Source: Candidatus Dojkabacteria bacterium
GTDB taxonomy: Bacteria; Patescibacteriota; Dojkabacteria; SC72
Reading direction: 5' to 3'
Assembly: GCA_016182915.1 (NCBI GenBank)
Contig: JACPFP010000003.1
Span: forward strand, 315,685 to 379,684
DNA length: 64,000 nt
Shown one piece after another: positions 11,047 through 51,835 of the stretch (positions are counted from its first letter, which is position 1; each line of letters starts with the position of its first letter). Made by a program: the position numbers and the translations under genes. A model generated the notes under the pieces. The model worked only from the letters and a program-made list of their open reading frames with translations, was not told where the DNA came from and ran no database searches.

Positions 11047-11064
11047 TCATTACCATTACTAAAA

Positions 11065-11138
11065 TCGGGGTGACTCGACTTGAACGAGCGGCCTCTTGCA
11101 CCCCATGCAAGCGTTCTAGCCATCTGAACTACACCCCG
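11065..11138 (-). tRNA. tRNA-Pro (anticodon GGG), CCA not encoded
   Basis: Minus-strand sequence CGGGGTG TA GTTC AGATGGCTA GAAC G CTTGC ATGGGGT GCAAG AGGCC GCTCG TTCAAGT CGAGT CACCCCG A folds into canonical cloverleaf (7/4/5/5 bp stems), U33, anticodon GGG, G37, C1-G72/A73 typical of bacterial tRNA-Pro. Confidence 0.8.
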
Positions 11139-11277
11139 TGCTTGTAATTCTAAAATAGTTAGAAAAGAATATCAAACAAAAATATACACACCCTATTATA
11201 TGGGGAGTCCGAAAACCAAAGTAGTTTGTTGTCCTACTTTCTCTTACTTATCTCCTAAAGCAATCATTAGGCGGTCT

Positions 11278-12363
11278 CTAAAGTTTAATTTCAATTATTA
11301 TTTGGTTGGGGTTAGTACTACCGTATAGTTTGAAGTCTTTGGTTGCCCCATCGAAGGTGTACTTGCTCGCATTGGTACCATCCATTTCCCATATCATAGT
11401 TACTCCTCCAGACATTGTCAACGCTGCCGGCATCTTTGCAATTGCGTCAGATACAATATCCGTAAATCGCAATACTAGATTGTTGTCACCATCATATCCT
11501 GCCGTAGCCGAAGGGATTGGTTTCTCCGTACTACCTTTAACCTCAAATACAACTCTTAATACTCCACCAGATGAACTGTATGAATATGAAGACACCTTAG
11601 CTCCATCTGTTCTTGTCGCTCCGACTATACTTTGAACCGTCTTGGAGAACTCATCACTCCCTAAATCTACTGTAGTATCTGAATCTGAGGCTCCTGGATA
11701 TTTAACATCAAGCTTAATTGACCATGTTCCAGTCGTAGTGGATGTAGAAGTAAGAAGAAATGGGGTCTCTTTTGTAACTCCTACATCGTATAACTCCTCT
11801 GTCTGATCTGCACTTACATTGTGATATACCTTAACTACCCCTTCCTTGTTTATCATCAAACTTTTCTGATACCCGATACCACTGTTGTCGGTCGTAACTC
11901 CCTTGAAATCGACTCTGATTGCTCCCAATGAGGAAACATATGTAGAGGTAACATAGGGATTAGGACTACCAGAGGATTTTTCAACAAGGGTAAAAACAAA
12001 GCTATGGTAACCAACATTAGCGGTATTAGTTAAACTTGAAAGTGTATACTGGGATGTATCGGTACTGTCGCTAACTCCAACATTCTGAGCTGTGGTTTTG
12101 AAGTTTGAGAGATCTGTAACAACAGGAGTGTCTGTGTCCGTATCGGTATTATCTTCTGTCTCTTCCTCCTCAACGGGTAGTTCCTCTTCATCGTTTGAAG
12201 TATCGGTATCTGTACCCTGCTCTGTATCATTCTCTTTCTTCCCAGCGTCATCCTGTTTACTTACATATGAGTATGCAAGATACCCAATCAAAGCTAAAAG
12301 TATGAAAAGAAAGACATAAAGAAGTGATGAAGACTTCTTTGGTTCTCTAATGCGTGGTTCCAT
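11278..12363 (-). CDS. Membrane-anchored surface protein with acidic D/E/T-rich linker and S/T-rich beta-rich ectodomain (hypothetical)
   Basis: N-terminal TM SSLLYVFLFILLALIGYLAY, low-complexity DTDTSNDEEELPVEEEETEDNTDTDTDT, then S/T/G-rich domain. Confidence 0.5.
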   Translation of the reverse strand: MEPRIREPKKSSSLLYVFLFILLALIGYLAYSYVSKQDDAGKKENDTEQGTDTDTSNDEEELPVEEEETEDNTDTDTDTPVVTDLSNFKTTAQNVGVSDSTDTSQYTLSSLTNTANVGYHSFVFTLVEKSSGSPNPYVTSTYVSSLGAIRVDFKGVTTDNSGIGYQKSLMINKEGVVKVYHNVSADQTEELYDVGVTKETPFLLTSTSTTTGTWSIKLDVKYPGASDSDTTVDLGSDEFSKTVQSIVGATRTDGAKVSSYSYSSSGGVLRVVFEVKGSTEKPIPSATAGYDGDNNLVLRFTDIVSDAIAKMPAALTMSGGVTMIWEMDGTNASKYTFDGATKDFKLYGSTNPNQIIIEIKL

Positions 12364-33491: not shown

Positions 33492-33566
33492 TGGTGCCGC
33501 CACAGGGAATCGAACCCTGGTTACATGATTGAGAATCATGAGTCCTAACCGTTAGACGATGGCGGC
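33492..33566 (-). tRNA. tRNA-Glu (anticodon CUC), CCA encoded
   Basis: Minus-strand GCCGCCA TC GTCT AACGGTTA GGAC T CATGA TTCTCAA TCATG TAACC CAGGG TTCGATT CCCTG TGGCGGC A CCA; canonical cloverleaf, U33, anticodon CTC, T-loop TTCGATT. Confidence 0.85.
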
Positions 33567-38176: not shown

Positions 38177-38515
38177 TTATTCCCATTCAGGAAGCTCATA
38201 CTCAGAACAAAAATCAATAAAGCTGTCGTACTTGTCGCCAAAAGCCTCTTTTAGTTCGTCCCGTTCAGCTAGATACAATCTTTCATCACCGATGATTTCA
38301 ACGATACATGATACTAAGATGGTAATTTCACCTTTATGCCTTATCGGAAAACATCGTACACCTCCGTTATCTACCCAGGGCTTGATTACAAGGGAGGGTA
38401 AAACGTTAAGTTCCTCCTCATAGCGTAAATATAGCTCCCCATCTCGATCATGAAATGCACCCAAGAGCTCTTTACGAGATGTAGAAGCGTTGATTTTTGG
38501 TAATGGGATTGTCAT
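38177..38515 (-). CDS. Hypothetical protein
   Basis: 112 aa, acidic, no recognisable motif. Confidence 0.4.
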   Translation of the reverse strand: MTIPLPKINASTSRKELLGAFHDRDGELYLRYEEELNVLPSLVIKPWVDNGGVRCFPIRHKGEITILVSCIVEIIGDERLYLAERDELKEAFGDKYDSFIDFCSEYELPEWE

Positions 38516-41402: not shown

Positions 41403-41659
41403 AGTATTAACTACTAAATTAAACTAGTCTTGCTGAAGTATTTTGTTTGATATGAAAGGGTGTATATACGAGAAATAGCCAAGTATTATCTACTTAGGTT
41501 TCCCACTTGTTTTAGACTTTTATGTGAAATAAATCTAATCATATATATATTTAAATCTTCTTCGTTTATCAAAATTTTTAATACTTACAGCAAATATAAA
41601 TGTAATAATATATTTACACGACAATGATATCATTTAACGACGATTAGGGCAATAAAAAG

Positions 41660-42034
41660 TTACGCTATGAAACCGGCATACGAGTTCCCTTCTCCAATAA
41701 AGATATGTGTATTATCACCAGAATTGAGATCGAAAAGGGTTAAATGAATAAATTCATTATCTGTGGAAAATGGGTTAATTTCACCGTACGATTTAGTAGT
41801 TAGTACACCACCTTTAAACTCAAGAGCTTCATTTCCACCTGAGCAATACCTGTCAGGACCAGCGAGAAAGACACTACAGTACTGACCCACTTTAAAGCTC
41901 TTAATTACTTGATTAACAGTTTCACCTGAGAGAGATTCTGGCGGTAGAGTCATAATCCAATCTCCTTTTCGGTTAGCTTTAAAGTCGAATAACAAAGCTT
42001 CTACCTGAGTTTGAACTTCCAAAACACTTGGCAT
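41660..42034 (-). CDS. Small hypothetical protein, paralog family member A (GPD-R-Y motif family)
   Basis: 124 aa; FLAGPDRY ... GVL...GEI blocks shared with 43755-44099 product. Confidence 0.45.
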   Translation of the reverse strand: MPSVLEVQTQVEALLFDFKANRKGDWIMTLPPESLSGETVNQVIKSFKVGQYCSVFLAGPDRYCSGGNEALEFKGGVLTTKSYGEINPFSTDNEFIHLTLFDLNSGDNTHIFIGEGNSYAGFIA

Positions 42035-42055
42035 AACTAGTCAATTAAAAGTTAT

Positions 42056-42379
42056 TTAAGTAATTTCCCATCCCTTACCAGGAACGTACTCATTCAGAAA
42101 AAAGGTTACGACTCCTTCTTTAGTAGAGACTTCAACTGCAACAATCTCCTCCATATCACTAAACTTTTTAATGCTAAAACACTTTCCGTTTTCTGGTAAA
42201 AGCTCTCTGCCATTAACGGCTATTCCATTTAGTGTAGAAAACATTTCACCATGAATTGGTGATTCATTATTTTCATCTGGGAATTGGACTGATGTAGCAG
42301 TAAGAAGCTCTTCATTAAGTATTTCTTCAACACCTACTTCTAAAGATTTCTCTAACCTTAAATTCAAATCCTTGTTCAT
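42056..42379 (-). CDS. Small acidic hypothetical protein, paralog family member B
   Basis: 107 aa; NGIAVNGRELLPENGKCF block shared with 44153-44491 product (NIGPVDTRLYPKNGIFL). Confidence 0.45.
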   Translation of the reverse strand: MNKDLNLRLEKSLEVGVEEILNEELLTATSVQFPDENNESPIHGEMFSTLNGIAVNGRELLPENGKCFSIKKFSDMEEIVAVEVSTKEGVVTFFLNEYVPGKGWEIT

Positions 42380-42480
42380 CGCTATGTGACTCTATCTTAT
42401 AGGGTGTATTATACCGCTTTATTAATACTTATCACAAGACTACTATACATGACCTTTTATTGTTGCTATAACTATTAAAT

Positions 42481-43758
42481 ATGGTTGAACTAAATGAGAC
42501 AAAAGCAATTAATCAAGAGAGGAAAATAAATAGAAACTTCAGATTCTTTGGTCTTACAGTTTTCTTTTTCGGTATGTCTGATGGGATACTTAGTTACTTT
42601 GCCCCTAAAGTTGTGGTTGAAGCTGGATACTCAAATACACAGATGGGAATACTAATGGCCCTATCCTCCGTTTTCGGAGCCATTCTGGATATTGTACTCT
42701 CAAGAGTGCTCAGAAATACCCACTACTACAGACTATATTTTTATGCTCTACTACTCATGATCTCGTTCCCATTCCTCCTCCTTACGTCTTCCTACTACTT
42801 CCTCCTTCTCATCTCAATGGCGATTTGGGCATTATATTGCAACCTTAGTTCCTTTGGGTACTACGATTATATTGCTCGCGTAACGAAAAAGAGTGAGCAT
42901 GCCTCCTCATTTGGGTTTTTGGATATCTACAGTAGTATGGGATACGTAGTGGCTCCTCTAATTGCAGGAACAATTGCGATAACCTCACTTGGTATAAAGG
43001 GAGCGGTAATTCCGATATTTGTATCTATTATGGGCTTAATATTTCTTATCGCAACAAGATTTTCACAACCGCGTAAAGAAAAGAGTGTGTTTGAAGTTGA
43101 ACATAAGAATACAAGGAGTTTCTTGGAAGAGATGGTAATCTGGAAAAGGGTCATAGTAAGGATGTGGCCGATGTTAATACTCTTTCTGAGTCTCTGTATA
43201 ATGGAAGCTGTTTTTTGGACTATGGCACCAGTTATAGAACTAGTATCCGCAAATTTAAAGGGTTATGGTGGTATTATTCTTACAGCAGCAATTGTTCCTT
43301 CCCTCTTAATAAACTGGAGCGTTGGTCCACTCACAAAATTATTTGGAAAGAAGAATACTGCATATACAACCTTCCTGTTTAGTAATGTATTTCTTTTTAT
43401 AATTGGGTTTGTAAATAATCCTGGAGTAATTGTTCTTCTAATTTTCATTACATACATTCTTCAATCTATTACCTTTCCTGCCATGGGGGGAGCCATAGCA
43501 GACTATTTGAAAGAGTCACAATCATACGACAGGGAAATATTAAGTACTAAAGATTTCTTTGGGAATCTAGGATATATAATCGGACCAGCAATAACCGGAA
43601 TACTTATGGATAGGATTGGGGGATTAGGAGTATTTAGTTACATGGCGATAATGGGATTTATTATTTCTCTAATACTAATTTTCTTTGCACCGAGAAGGAT
43701 ACCTTTCTACGATAGGAATATTGAAGTGGAGGAGAACCTAAGTAAGTTGGAGATTTAA
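42481..43758 (+). CDS. MFS transporter
   Basis: 12 predicted TM helices, 425 aa, MFS-like loop between TM2-3. Confidence 0.7.
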   Translation: MVELNETKAINQERKINRNFRFFGLTVFFFGMSDGILSYFAPKVVVEAGYSNTQMGILMALSSVFGAILDIVLSRVLRNTHYYRLYFYALLLMISFPFLLLTSSYYFLLLISMAIWALYCNLSSFGYYDYIARVTKKSEHASSFGFLDIYSSMGYVVAPLIAGTIAITSLGIKGAVIPIFVSIMGLIFLIATRFSQPRKEKSVFEVEHKNTRSFLEEMVIWKRVIVRMWPMLILFLSLCIMEAVFWTMAPVIELVSANLKGYGGIILTAAIVPSLLINWSVGPLTKLFGKKNTAYTTFLFSNVFLFIIGFVNNPGVIVLLIFITYILQSITFPAMGGAIADYLKESQSYDREILSTKDFFGNLGYIIGPAITGILMDRIGGLGVFSYMAIMGFIISLILIFFAPRRIPFYDRNIEVEENLSKLEI

Positions 43759-44099
43759 TTAACTTCACGATAGAAGATTGCCTTATTTCCTTCTCTATCA
43801 CTGATGTAGTATCCGACAAGCATATTATTTCCTATACTGTTAAGCCTTTTAACTTCTAGCTCACCACCCAGAACAACTTCTCCTTCATTTAGTCTTAAAA
43901 CTCCATCTTCATATACAACTGAATCCATTAATTTCATACTACTATCAGGACCTGCAAGAACTTTATTAACAGTAAGCCCGTCTTCATATAATGAAACTAT
44001 ATCTGATGCTTTAAAAGATGAAGTTTCACCTTCTCTACAAACGAACATCATTAAAACATCTCCGTAAGAATATGTAACTCCCTTTTCAAATGTTGGCAT
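43755..44099 (-). CDS. Small hypothetical protein, paralog family member C
   Basis: 114 aa; VLAGPDSS ... GVL...GEV blocks shared with 41660-42034 product. Confidence 0.45.
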   Translation of the reverse strand: MPTFEKGVTYSYGDVLMMFVCREGETSSFKASDIVSLYEDGLTVNKVLAGPDSSMKLMDSVVYEDGVLRLNEGEVVLGGELEVKRLNSIGNNMLVGYYISDREGNKAIFYREVN

Positions 44100-44152
44100 A
44101 ATATATACTCCTAAATTATATTCCTTTCATATTACGCAATAGGCAACTAAGC

Positions 44153-44491
44153 TCAAGCAACAGTCTCGGTTGGAGCAGGAACTCCCACAAGAATCATATC
44201 ATTATCACCATGTACCCAGATTTCGCCATCCTTTTCTACAACTAAGAATATTCCATTTTTTGGATAAAGTCTTGTATCTACCGGTCCTATATTAAAATAG
44301 ATATTATCAGTGAAAGTAGGCTTAACTGTTTCAAGATGAGAATCGTCACTATATTCCATAAGTGGCCCAATGTAGAACTGCGCCATATTCTTCAATTTTC
44401 CAACAATTTCTCTACCGCTCTTTGCATTTGCCTCAACACGATATTGAGACTCAACTAAACTCATTTCTACACCTGAAGACATAACAGCCAT
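44153..44491 (-). CDS. Small hypothetical protein, paralog family member D
   Basis: 112 aa; IGPVDTRLYPKNG block shared with B and loosely with A/C. Confidence 0.45.
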   Translation of the reverse strand: MAVMSSGVEMSLVESQYRVEANAKSGREIVGKLKNMAQFYIGPLMEYSDDSHLETVKPTFTDNIYFNIGPVDTRLYPKNGIFLVVEKDGEIWVHGDNDMILVGVPAPTETVA

Positions 44492-44531
44492 AATAATAGG
44501 GTATTAAAATTTATATATCCTATAACAAGAA

Positions 44532-45560
44532 TTATACCTCAGACTGTAACTTCTCAACAAGCCTCTGATAGAAACGGAGATTATGTATTGTCGCAAGAAT
44601 CATTCCCGTAGCTTCTCCAACCCTAATCATATGATGAATATATGCTCTTGTATGATTGAGACATGCCTCACAATCACAAGTACTATCGATTGGTTTAATA
44701 TCTTTAGAATACTGAGAGTTTTTAAGCCTCAAGATATAATCGGCCTCATCGAAAGAATATAGTGTTCCATGCCTTGCATTCCTTGTTACCAAAACTGTAT
44801 CAAAAACTGTATAGCCAATCTCAGCCGAATCAACGATATCCTGCGGTTTACCTACTCCCATTGCATATTTGAATTTATCCTTTGGAGTATTCTCTAAAAC
44901 AACTTTCATCTCCTCTATAACCAGCTTCCCATTATCATCAATCACATACCCTCCGAAATTGTAACCATCAAAACCCATCTTAGAAAGTTCTTTTGCACAG
45001 TATTCTCTTAAGTCAAGAAAGTTTGCTCCCTGTACTACGGCAGATATTAACTTACCTTTCTCATAGCCTCCGAGTTTCTTGAAGTGGGCAAGAGATCGCT
45101 TCCCCCACTCTAGTGTTCTTTCAACCGATATCTCAGCTTCCCTTCTATCTACCTGCGCATCCCTGCAATCATCAAGGGCAACAAGAATATCAGTACCTAG
45201 TTTCATTTGAATCTCAACCGAAGACTCAGGGGTGAGGGTATATATCTTCCCTTCTCTTGGGGACTTAAAGGTTGCCCCGTTGCTATCAATCTTCCCTTCC
45301 CATTTCTTTGAATGGAGAAGTGAGAATACCTGGAAACCTCCAGAATCACTTAGCATATATCCCTCATTCCAATTCATAAACTTGTGAATACCACCAAGAT
45401 CAGCAATTGCATCTGCTCCTGGATGAATTAGAAGGTGAAGAGTGTTAACAACAATGTTCTTGGTTCCAGTATCTTTTAACTGGGTTGATGTTAGAAAACG
45501 CACAGCACCTCTAGTTGCATCTGGCATAAAGGTTATTTTCTTTCCAAAATCTTCTATCAT
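44532..45560 (-). CDS. tgt: Queuine tRNA-ribosyltransferase
   Basis: TIM-barrel TGT motifs, Zn site CDCEAC...H, LATIHNLRFYQRL. Confidence 0.85.
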   Translation of the reverse strand: MIEDFGKKITFMPDATRGAVRFLTSTQLKDTGTKNIVVNTLHLLIHPGADAIADLGGIHKFMNWNEGYMLSDSGGFQVFSLLHSKKWEGKIDSNGATFKSPREGKIYTLTPESSVEIQMKLGTDILVALDDCRDAQVDRREAEISVERTLEWGKRSLAHFKKLGGYEKGKLISAVVQGANFLDLREYCAKELSKMGFDGYNFGGYVIDDNGKLVIEEMKVVLENTPKDKFKYAMGVGKPQDIVDSAEIGYTVFDTVLVTRNARHGTLYSFDEADYILRLKNSQYSKDIKPIDSTCDCEACLNHTRAYIHHMIRVGEATGMILATIHNLRFYQRLVEKLQSEV

Positions 45561-46612
45561 ATTATCAACATACTATCTCCATAACTTAAAAAATTGTATT
45601 TATCCTTAATAGCTTCCGTATATGCTTCCACTATAAAGTCGTAACCTGTAAAGGAGGATATCATAACAACAAGACTACTTTTAGGAGCATGAAAGTTTGT
45701 AATCATATGATTTACAATCTTCCACTCGTACCCCGGATATATGTATATACTTGTTTCTCCTGTGTACTCCTTAACATAGTATTTGTCCCCAATCTTCTGA
45801 GCCACACTTTCAAGAACTCTTGCAGAGGTTGTGCCTAATGCCCAAACTCCATTACCACTCTTGATTGCCTCATTGATTATATCAGCACTCTCCTTACTAA
45901 CTTCAATATATTCAGAATGTATCTTATGGTCCTCAATATTTTCAGTACGAATAGGGGCAAAGGTTCCCCATCCAACATTCAACTTCACCTCTACAACCTT
46001 CACTCCCTTCTCTTTCAACCGCTTTAACATTTCAGGGATTATATTAAGGCCTGAGGTTGGAGCGGCAGAGGAACCTACATGTTTTGCAAACACTGTATTA
46101 TACCTAACATAATCCTCTTTATTGTCTTCTCTTTTTAAGTATGGGGGGAGCGGGACATGACCTTCATGTTTAAACATCTCATCAATCACTCCCTTCTTCG
46201 ATGATATGAGAAAAATACTATCTTCAATCTTTCCCTCTACCTTTATCTGGGTATTTGTAACTTCCGAAGTTATTATATCCCCTTCATTCATATACTTTGC
46301 CCTTCCTAATATGCACTCCCAGTATTCAACTGACTCATCTGTTCCTCTGAAAACTTTGTTTAGAAAGAGTCCTTCTATTCTCTTCCCGTTTCTAGGGTTA
46401 GTAAAATATACTCTCACTTTTTCAACCTTTGTACTGTTTAGAACAAGGACGTCCCCTTCATTAATGTACTCTACTATATCTACATACTTTTTATGTTCTA
46501 TTGTCTTTTTCTCTCTATCCAATACCATTAATCGAGTGCTACCCCTCTGTTTAGGAGGGAACTTAGCTATAAGGGGGTCGGGTAGGTTGTAGTCAAAATC
46601 TGTGAGTTTCAT
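45557..46612 (-). CDS. queA: S-adenosylmethionine:tRNA ribosyltransferase-isomerase
   Basis: Start set at internal ATG 46612 (MKLTDFDYNLPDPLIAKFP, canonical QueA N-terminus); ORF-track start 46714 would overlap upstream gene. Confidence 0.85.
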   Translation of the reverse strand: MKLTDFDYNLPDPLIAKFPPKQRGSTRLMVLDREKKTIEHKKYVDIVEYINEGDVLVLNSTKVEKVRVYFTNPRNGKRIEGLFLNKVFRGTDESVEYWECILGRAKYMNEGDIITSEVTNTQIKVEGKIEDSIFLISSKKGVIDEMFKHEGHVPLPPYLKREDNKEDYVRYNTVFAKHVGSSAAPTSGLNIIPEMLKRLKEKGVKVVEVKLNVGWGTFAPIRTENIEDHKIHSEYIEVSKESADIINEAIKSGNGVWALGTTSARVLESVAQKIGDKYYVKEYTGETSIYIYPGYEWKIVNHMITNFHAPKSSLVVMISSFTGYDFIVEAYTEAIKDKYNFLSYGDSMLII

Positions 46613-46625
46613 TGATGTGATTATA

Positions 46626-47516
46626 TCATTCAAAGTCTGGAAGTATATCCAGAGTCTTCTCCCGTTCTTTAAGCCATCTTTTAAACCTCTTATTCCACAG
46701 AACTGTGTTACCAAAGGTTGATTCTGTTTTAGATGCTCTCCTTAGAATCTCTGATAGATCCTTTCCCTGGACAGTTAACATTTGCATAAGGTAATTGAAT
46801 ATGTCTGTAAGTTCAAATGTATAATCAATCCTCTTTCTTAACCTATTTTCTTCACTACTTTTAAGAAGCTCCTCTGAAGCCAGATATAACTCCTCAATCT
46901 CATCCGTTAGAAGAGTGTATAGGTTTCCACGAGTGAAACGGATTGGGTTTCCAAGGCTCTCTAGCCACTCAGCTGATAGACTTTGATACTCCCTAATACT
47001 ACCAAGATTTACTTTAGAACCATTTCCCTGTCTGTAGTATGTTCTTAAACTTTCCATAATAGGATCTTTCTGAAGAGATTCAATTGCACGTTTAGATACT
47101 CTCATGTTTGCCAACCAGTCCTCGTAATCTGAGAAACCCGAACCTGTTTGAGAGATTGTATGCCTCATTAATGAGTATCTCGCCTCATTACTAAAATATT
47201 TGCTCCATAGGGCAGTCTCTAAATCTAAAGCACCATCCGAACTATATATCTCCCTTATAACATGTAGGCAACACCTACCCAATTCTATACAGAAGTCATC
47301 TGATGAGAGAACCTCCATATACTCAGGCAATATTGTTAATTCCGAAATTAGCAGTTGAACTCTATGAAACATTGGGTCCTCGGGAACCGCACAGCCATTC
47401 CGAATATCGGGAGGAGCCGAGCCTTTCATTGCTAAATACACAACCTCCCCCATACTTAGAGGTCTCCCTTGAGGCTCAAATTCATATCGGATTGGAAGGT
47501 CAATACCCTCTACCAT
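46626..47516 (-). CDS. Hypothetical protein with C-terminal MazG-like (all-alpha NTP pyrophosphohydrolase) E-x-x-E...E-x-x-D motif
   Basis: EIEELYLASEEL ... ELTDIFNYL pattern; N-terminal 200 aa unassigned. Confidence 0.35.
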   Translation of the reverse strand: MVEGIDLPIRYEFEPQGRPLSMGEVVYLAMKGSAPPDIRNGCAVPEDPMFHRVQLLISELTILPEYMEVLSSDDFCIELGRCCLHVIREIYSSDGALDLETALWSKYFSNEARYSLMRHTISQTGSGFSDYEDWLANMRVSKRAIESLQKDPIMESLRTYYRQGNGSKVNLGSIREYQSLSAEWLESLGNPIRFTRGNLYTLLTDEIEELYLASEELLKSSEENRLRKRIDYTFELTDIFNYLMQMLTVQGKDLSEILRRASKTESTFGNTVLWNKRFKRWLKEREKTLDILPDFE

Positions 47517-51518: not shown

Positions 51519-51835
51519 CGCACAAGTACCCCATAAGCCGAATTCTGTTTTCTGCAACTATCTATCTATGCGGTGTTAAATATCACCTTGCTTCAGACGG
51601 GGGTTACAAAGCATAGAGATATTACTATCCCTACCGGTAGTCTCTTACACTACCTTTTCACCCTTACCCTTACGGGCGGTATACTTTCTGTTGCCCTTTT
51701 ATCCAAGAGATTACTCCCTTCCGACTCACATCGGCATCTATCACGAAGTATTGTTCGTGACCCACATGAAGTCCGGACTTTCCTCTATAGCGACATATTA
51801 TCGCTACAGCAATTGCATAGGATACTTGTGCTGTA
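51508..51835 (-). ncRNA. rnpB: RNase P RNA (bacterial type A), rnpB
   Basis: Minus-strand GAGGAAAGUCCGGAC (P4 5' strand; + strand 51769-51785), ACAGAAAGUAUACCGCCCGUAAGGGUAAGGGUGAAAAGGUAGUGUAAGAGACUACC (P9-P12 consensus block), and ACAGAAUUCGGCUUAUGG (P4 3' strand; + strand 51533-51549) at correct spacing; P2 pairing GUAUCC/GGGUAC; TGgTATAAT promoter-like element just upstream. Confidence 0.8.

Follow-up and report, generated by a model that had tools for sequence, protein, structure and literature searches.

Four small orphan genes between tgt and rny in a Dojkabacteria genome: fast divergence and a possible local duplication

Three described kinds of gene arrangement come close to the locus treated here: ORFan genes in variable islands, diverged tandem or segmental duplicates, and arrays of antitoxins or of immunity genes of polymorphic toxins. 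The locus lies in a 64-kb stretch of a metagenome-assembled genome of Candidatus Dojkabacteria (Candidate Phyla Radiation (CPR)/Patescibacteria); this whole stretch of 64,000 nucleotides is called the window below. Its contig has 506,665 bp, and its genes bear HYV12_ locus tags. It holds four small open reading frames (ORFs) on the minus strand, named D, C, B and A in their order along that strand. They form the pairs D-C and B-A, with a gene for a major facilitator superfamily (MFS) transporter between them. Each pair is preceded by a copy of a promoter-like element, D has a highly diverged counterpart in one related genome, and the four genes fill a gap between tgt and rny that carries unrelated genes in other genomes. 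The genes are as follows:

44153-44491, minus strand: D, 112 aa, acidic soluble orphan; first gene of the D-C pair, directly downstream of tgt
43755-44099, minus strand: C, 114 aa, acidic soluble orphan; second gene of the D-C pair
42481-43758, plus strand: MFS_1 transporter gene, 425 aa, between the pairs D-C and B-A
42056-42379, minus strand: B, 107 aa, acidic soluble orphan; first gene of the B-A pair
41660-42034, minus strand: A, 124 aa, acidic soluble orphan; second gene of the B-A pair

Read on the minus strand, queA and tgt come first, followed by D and C, the MFS gene (which is on the opposite strand), B and A, and then by a conserved leader, rny, a ymdB-like gene and hup. The original prediction, made from the letters of the window, had placed four minus-strand genes in two pairs around an MFS gene, and the ORFs together with the MFS_1 match confirmed this layout to the exact coordinate. 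The transporter meets the gathering score of Pfam MFS_1 (108 bits versus a cut-off of 33.4; E = 6.4e-31). C has a Shine-Dalgarno sequence (AGGAG) 9 nt upstream of its start, and its 3' end overlaps that of the converging MFS gene by 4 nt. B and the MFS gene are divergent and separated by a spacer of 101 nt. NCBI starts D at the second ATG, which gives a protein of 109 aa.

For comparison, 51 loci were gathered with tgt as anchor, mostly from Dojkabacteria; about 36 of them span the gap between tgt and rny. The closest relatives of the window are L001 (UBA2022) and L002, in each of which tgt is 83% identical to the tgt of the window. The two pairs resemble each other in the DNA that precedes them, which contains the following elements:

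44516-44564, minus strand: promoter-like element upstream of D, TTGTTG-N18-TATAAT-N6-TATAGGATA
42391-42441, minus strand: promoter-like element upstream of B, TTGTGA-N18-TATAAT-N6-TATAAGATA

The shared part consists of a -35-like CTTGT, then GGTATAAT and, six bases on, TATA(A/G)GATA. In the element upstream of D, the -35 box lies within the 3' coding end of tgt and the tgt stop codon lies within the -10 box. The similarity between the sequences upstream of B and of D or its L001 ortholog (described below) is not confined to the hexamers but extends over about 50 to 80 nt. In a blastn search of about 0.8 Mb (the window and the loci), the top match of the 100 nt upstream of B was L001 10994-11044, in the tgt 3' end and the intergenic DNA before the L001 ortholog, with 77% identity over 52 nt (E = 0.005). 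The Smith-Waterman score between this region and the one upstream of the L001 ortholog was 26, compared with 8.7 ± 1.7 (maximum 16) for 460 real upstream regions, which corresponds to z ≈ 10. The pattern GTATAAT-N6-TATARGATA occurs in the window upstream of B and of D only, even with 2 mismatches, and at a single site in the 51 loci, upstream of the L001 ortholog; since the pattern was derived from these very sites, the search shows its uniqueness and is not an independent discovery. Non-coding DNA that appears homologous thus stands in the same relative position in front of each pair, as is expected of a segmental duplication.

Both in the window (44531-44538, minus strand) and in L001 (11019-11026), the -10-like box GGTATAAT encloses the stop codon of tgt (GTA TAA), and the box appears to serve the small gene downstream. 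In L002, no small gene follows tgt, tgt ends in GTG TAG, and the box is absent. Further upstream of B, at about 42459-42468, there is a collinear TAGCAACAAT, which may be a relic of the 3' end of tgt.

The only relative of any of the four small proteins was found in L001. Here, a single ORF of 112 aa (11054-11392) lies right after tgt and converges on an MFS gene as D and C do in the window. Its product aligns with D from end to end at 24% identity. When tested by shuffles and real-protein controls, this alignment had p ≤ 0.002 with BLOSUM45 and p = 0.009 to 0.05 with BLOSUM62. Judging by position and alignment, we regard this ORF as a highly diverged positional ortholog of D. L001 is alone among the other gap-spanning Dojkabacteria loci in having an MFS gene in the gap. 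The degree of divergence between the window and L001 differs widely along the locus: tgt is 83% identical, the MFS protein 49% and D 24%. C has no counterpart in L001, and L002 has neither the MFS gene nor a small gene in the gap. The number of small genes in the three closest genomes is therefore four (window), one (L001) and zero (L002). The suggestion of the original prediction that the genes may belong to a rapidly diversifying system was borne out by these comparisons, and the copy number, which it had proposed to compare between related genomes, does vary. The co-inheritance of a D-like gene and an MFS gene in two genomes is the sole hint of a functional partner.

The comparison also delimits the B-A block. 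On its downstream side lies the following feature:

41403-41655, minus strand: upstream leader of rny, non-coding, conserved in L001 (12717-12941) and L002 (about 11855-12084)

About 5 nt past the stop codon of A, the sequence becomes homologous to L001 and L002 again, and this marks the boundary of the block. B-A fits exactly between the start of the MFS gene and the conserved leader; together with the region upstream of it (about 810 nt in all), the pair stands in place of about 60 nt of L001. The leader is about 230 to 250 nt long and 72 to 74% identical among the three genomes (blastn against L001, 74% over 339 nt). It contains long invariant blocks, for example ATATTTGCTGTAAGTATTAA, and has no Rfam match. 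A consensus fold of the leader is based on three sequences with little covariation.

The order queA-tgt-[gap]-rny-hup was kept in the approximately 36 gap-spanning loci, and the gap itself ranged from about 190 bp to 7.4 kb. Its content varied: it held nothing, an insertion sequence (IS) 200-like Y1 transposase, a methyltransferase, GrpB, an NYN-domain protein, a peptidase of family S51 or a glycosyltransferase. Since this cargo is unrelated in different genomes, the tgt-rny gap is a hot spot for accessory genes. The IS200-like Y1 transposase (about 143 aa, on the opposite strand) was present in the same gap in at least nine Dojkabacteria genomes; examples are L007 1501-1932, L010 11029-11460 and L019 3978-4409, as well as L023, L026, L027, L028 and L044. 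This suggests that the gap is a recurrent insertion site.

Apart from the ortholog of D, the four genes are orphans that lack homologs beyond their immediate lineage. In a word-indexed search of 5.8e9 protein clusters, A, C and D matched only themselves. The small proteins form singleton clusters. A full HMMER scan of 1.84e9 representatives with B returned B itself and two highly repetitive proteins (P0009 and P0010). The latter matches (E = 1e-11 and 3e-4) were rejected as artefacts of summing over repeats, as they consist of 8 to 11 near-identical repeats that contribute 3 to 6 bits each, with an i-Evalue of about 1e6. P0009 and P0010 are built of tandem units of about 63 aa and also match several unrelated Pfam families with E-values down to 1e-15, no single repeat being significant; this behaviour is a caution for automated annotation. 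Searches of Pfam, NCBIfam, PHROGs, PADLOC, the PDB sequences and phage records (tblastn) gave no significant match for any of the four proteins, in keeping with the earlier statement that they cannot be assigned to a known family. The top PADLOC match was AbiEi, at 11.5 bits and a non-significant E of 0.046. Neither phmmer with the --max option nor a hidden Markov model (HMM) of D and its ortholog found a match for A to D among all ORFs of the 51 syntenic loci. A weak similarity between C and QueA (E = 0.003 to 0.013) was rejected, as its two short alignments, over a segment of the NEGD type, differed from each other. Of two metagenome scans made with the MFS protein, the first gave nothing and the second a single distant MFS gene whose neighbours were not similar.

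To judge whether the ORFs are genes, we compared their codon usage in the annotated frame with that of tgt (0.335 bits per codon), hup (0.475) and nested spurious ORFs (-0.01 ± 0.06, maximum 0.107). B, C and D scored 0.37 to 0.40 bits per codon (D 0.365, C 0.402, B 0.37). A scored 0.144, the lowest of the four, yet the highest among the six frames of A. By these codon scores we take B, C and D to be real genes and A to be probably real. All four proteins have a pI of 4.4 to 4.6, no hydrophobic segment and no signal peptide; the original prediction had described them as acidic to neutral and cytoplasmic. C contains the motif YEDG(L/V)x(V/L)N twice, as an internal repeat. The single-sequence AlphaFold2 model of C is mostly beta and of moderate quality (predicted local distance difference test score (pLDDT) 64.5, predicted template modelling score (pTM) 0.55), and it had no fold match in the PDB or BFVD. 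The corresponding model of D was poor (pLDDT 41) and gave no usable fold.

There may also be a residual similarity between the coding parts of the two pairs. When B-A was compared with D-C by blastn, weak high-scoring segment pairs (HSPs) clustered near the collinear diagonal, with 13 in the band. None of 400 codon shuffles reached this number (3.8 ± 1.9), and 106 real-gene controls gave 3.2 to 3.6 ± 1.8, with a maximum of 8. The excess came mainly from A and C, which had 13 in-frame HSPs compared with 3.7 ± 2.0 (maximum 10 of 92) in the controls. There was no excess between B and D.

We consider it somewhat better than an even chance (roughly 55%) that these are four lineage-restricted, fast-evolving genes for small, acidic, soluble proteins, organized in the tgt-rny hot spot as two promoter-led units of which B-A arose by local duplication, the coding parts having since diverged. 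The ancestral arrangement would have been tgt, a D-like gene and the MFS gene, as is still visible in L001. The duplication that gave rise to the B-A unit would have copied at least the region of the tgt 3' end and promoter, and probably the gene or genes behind it too. The coding parts would then have diverged past recognition, leaving a faint trace between A and C. The two pairs are probably transcribed separately, each from the copy of the shared promoter or operator in front of it, and would for this reason be co-regulated. The products would be beta-rich accessory proteins of the cytoplasm, non-enzymatic in appearance and dispensable at the genus level rather than housekeeping. The homologous 5' control region and the in-frame matches between A and C make it plausible that a segment was duplicated locally and then diverged extremely. 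Identity between D and its ortholog has already fallen to 24%, and a paralog of greater age would be expected to have lost all recognisable likeness. That B and D are not similar consequently does not exclude duplication, although the proteins provide nothing positive for it either. The original prediction had described the region as a duplicated two-gene cassette, and this gains partial support from the homologous 5' control region and the excess of in-frame A-C matches, but none at the protein level from B and D. More generally, its interpretation was partly right on duplication, divergence and copy number, although on grounds that were not available to it.

Several observations weigh against this explanation. 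B and D show no protein similarity, though they should be paralogs if a whole unit was duplicated. The HSP excess between A and C dropped to p = 0.03 to 0.05 when C was the query, and the HSPs were spread over several inconsistent diagonals; part of the signal may therefore come from a shared G/E-rich composition or from internal repeats. The coding statistics of A are weak. Any likeness in fold among the small proteins depends on models that are poor (D) or moderate (C). As for the upstream region, the part upstream of B that is equivalent to tgt coding sequence had p = 0.07 when taken alone, and a profile of the tgt 3' coding end (nhmmer) found no match there. Because this part is not significant by itself, the shared element could be a regulatory motif in common use instead of a relic of duplication. 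A pseudo-tgt fragment upstream of B was for the same two reasons not established. The idea that B and A, or D and C, are the halves of one disrupted gene was rejected, since the ortholog of D also has 112 aa and no longer homolog exists.

A less likely but still quite possible alternative is that four unrelated orphans were inserted or born de novo in the hot spot independently of one another, and that the shared element is a common type of promoter or operator with no gene duplication behind it. This would fit the lack of a significant protein pair, the unrelated cargo that the gap is proven to take up elsewhere, and the behaviour of the tgt-coding part upstream of B. It accounts less well for an upstream similarity that runs over some 50 to 80 nt and stands far above that of real upstream regions, for the confinement of the element to these sites in the window and the 51 loci, and for the surplus of weak matches, collinear and in frame, that links the pairs, chiefly A and C.

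The explanation put forward originally, that all four proteins are far-diverged paralogs of one family with two subtypes, duplicated as a two-gene cassette, appears unlikely. The proteins are alike in size, charge and beta-rich character and are encoded in the same two-gene layout behind homologous 5' elements; the A-C signal and the fast divergence seen for D also speak in its favour. The protein comparisons do not. With Smith-Waterman alignments and shuffles, the top pair was A-C at z = 1.5, B-D had z < 0, and three further scoring schemes applied to all pairs left none significant; nor was any pair significant by BLASTP. Against a null of 470 real protein segments, A-C had p = 0.01 to 0.3 depending on the gap cost and B-D p = 0.46 to 0.65, while A-B, C-D and B-C were unremarkable; B-D, A-B and C-D are thus at or under random expectation. 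The profile of D and its ortholog, compared with A, B and C by hhalign, gave probabilities of 0.1 to 0.2%. In a phmmer search of the 289 ORFs of the window, the top non-self match of A was C, but with E = 1.1. Significant similarity, pairwise or by profile, that would tie the four into a single family was accordingly not seen, A-C alone being marginal.

The motifs on which the family had been based fared unevenly. LAGPD, GVL and GE[IV] are indeed present in both A and C, as described for the distal members, but were not confirmed to exceed chance. Among the protein pairs of the window, 203 of 2775 have some exact 5-mer of the LAGPD kind in common, and so do 5 of 105 when only small ORFs are paired; with so many such pairs, the shared LAGPD carries little weight. 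The proximal members B and D do share R..P.NG, but the longer motif described for them needs a one-residue gap in D (VDTR-LYPKNG). B lacks the proposed four-way core GP-x-D-x-R-x-Y, and C retains just GPD of it. The claim of one family expanded to four copies was not supported.

In an improbable, more ambitious version, A and C, perhaps together with B and D, would be the first members of a new family of Dojkabacteria proteins that are small, acidic, beta-rich and evolving extremely fast, with a dedicated shared promoter or operator (GTATAAT-N6-TATARGATA) and a functional tie to the adjacent MFS exporter. If true, the genes could represent, for example, a lineage-specific module for host-cell interaction or exporter regulation.

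It is very improbable that the region is non-coding filler in which some of the ORFs, above all A, or even all four are untranslated. The absence of homologs means that there is no evidence from conservation, and A combines its low codon score with the lack of a Shine-Dalgarno sequence. However, B, C and D score as bona fide genes, far over the nested spurious ORFs, four long ORFs on one strand tightly fill the space, and the diverged ortholog of D has kept an equal length and the same position. Least credible is an immunity, antitoxin or other conflict-system array, as had also been proposed: small size, acidity, fast evolution, variable copy number and a variable region would suit it, but the genes around the small ORFs are queA, tgt, rny and that of the MFS transporter. 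Genes for toxins, nucleases, secretion or defence are missing from the island and from its immediate flanks, and neither a significant PADLOC or PHROGs match nor a phage homolog was obtained.

Some further observations concern the surroundings of the locus. As called mechanically, with a TTG start and 385 aa, the queA ORF (45557-46714, minus strand) probably extends too far: QueA orthologs and the gene call on the Logan contig described next have 351 aa and start with MKLTDFDYNLP, and the 385-aa version overlaps an upstream hypothetical gene of 296 aa (46626-47516). An independent assembly of the same sequence, a 9651-bp Logan contig (SRR12113422; L052), stops 42 bp past the stop codon of B and does not cover A; this break at the B/A junction could be a coincidence or reflect strain heterogeneity there. 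Up to the break, the contig shows no strain variation from which dN/dS could be derived. Another acidic orphan ORF of 112 aa (38177-38515, minus strand) lies between a YibE/F-like gene and hup. It forms a singleton cluster, belongs to no family and has a codon score of just 0.109; at its position L001 and L002 carry other genes, which makes this a second small variable spot. An Rfam search of the small-gene region gave no match. In the whole window, the Rfam matches above the gathering score were a class A RNase P RNA (51519-51828, minus strand, 169.6 bits) and one tRNA gene (33495-33566, minus strand).

The analysis shows the tgt-rny junction to be a hot spot for accessory genes in Dojkabacteria, at which small proteins can fall to about 24% identity while core neighbours hold 83%. 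It illustrates in one concrete case how 'hypothetical' orphan proteins come about in CPR genomes, and how the promoter may be the only place where a duplication is still visible. The phenomenon itself, hypothetical genes that are specific to a lineage and lie in a variable CPR region, is familiar; the locus adds a new case of it, with little import beyond annotation. If the shared promoter element is a real operator, it would open a way to study how genes are regulated in an uncultured lineage.

Compared with the described systems, the likeness to immunity arrays of polymorphic toxins and to antitoxins is confined to small, acidic, cytoplasmic products in variable number; the locus differs in having no cognate toxin gene, no similarity to an immunity, antitoxin or defence family, and flanks of housekeeping and transporter genes. 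With diverged tandem or segmental duplicates it shares two two-gene units of like size and orientation, a homologous promoter-like region before each, and a faint collinear signal between A and C. It departs from them in that significant similarity of the products is lacking for B-D and marginal for A-C, and in that the copies are split by an oppositely oriented MFS gene instead of lying head-to-tail. The ORFan genes of variable islands are likewise without homologs past the closest relatives and lie, as here between tgt and rny, between syntenic core genes; host-like codon usage, very fast divergence, and relatives that carry other cargo or nothing at the site are further points in common. 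At 3.1 kb the island described here is tiny, and it has no integrase, tRNA or transposase at the site in the window, but IS200-like transposases hold the same gap in other Dojkabacteria.

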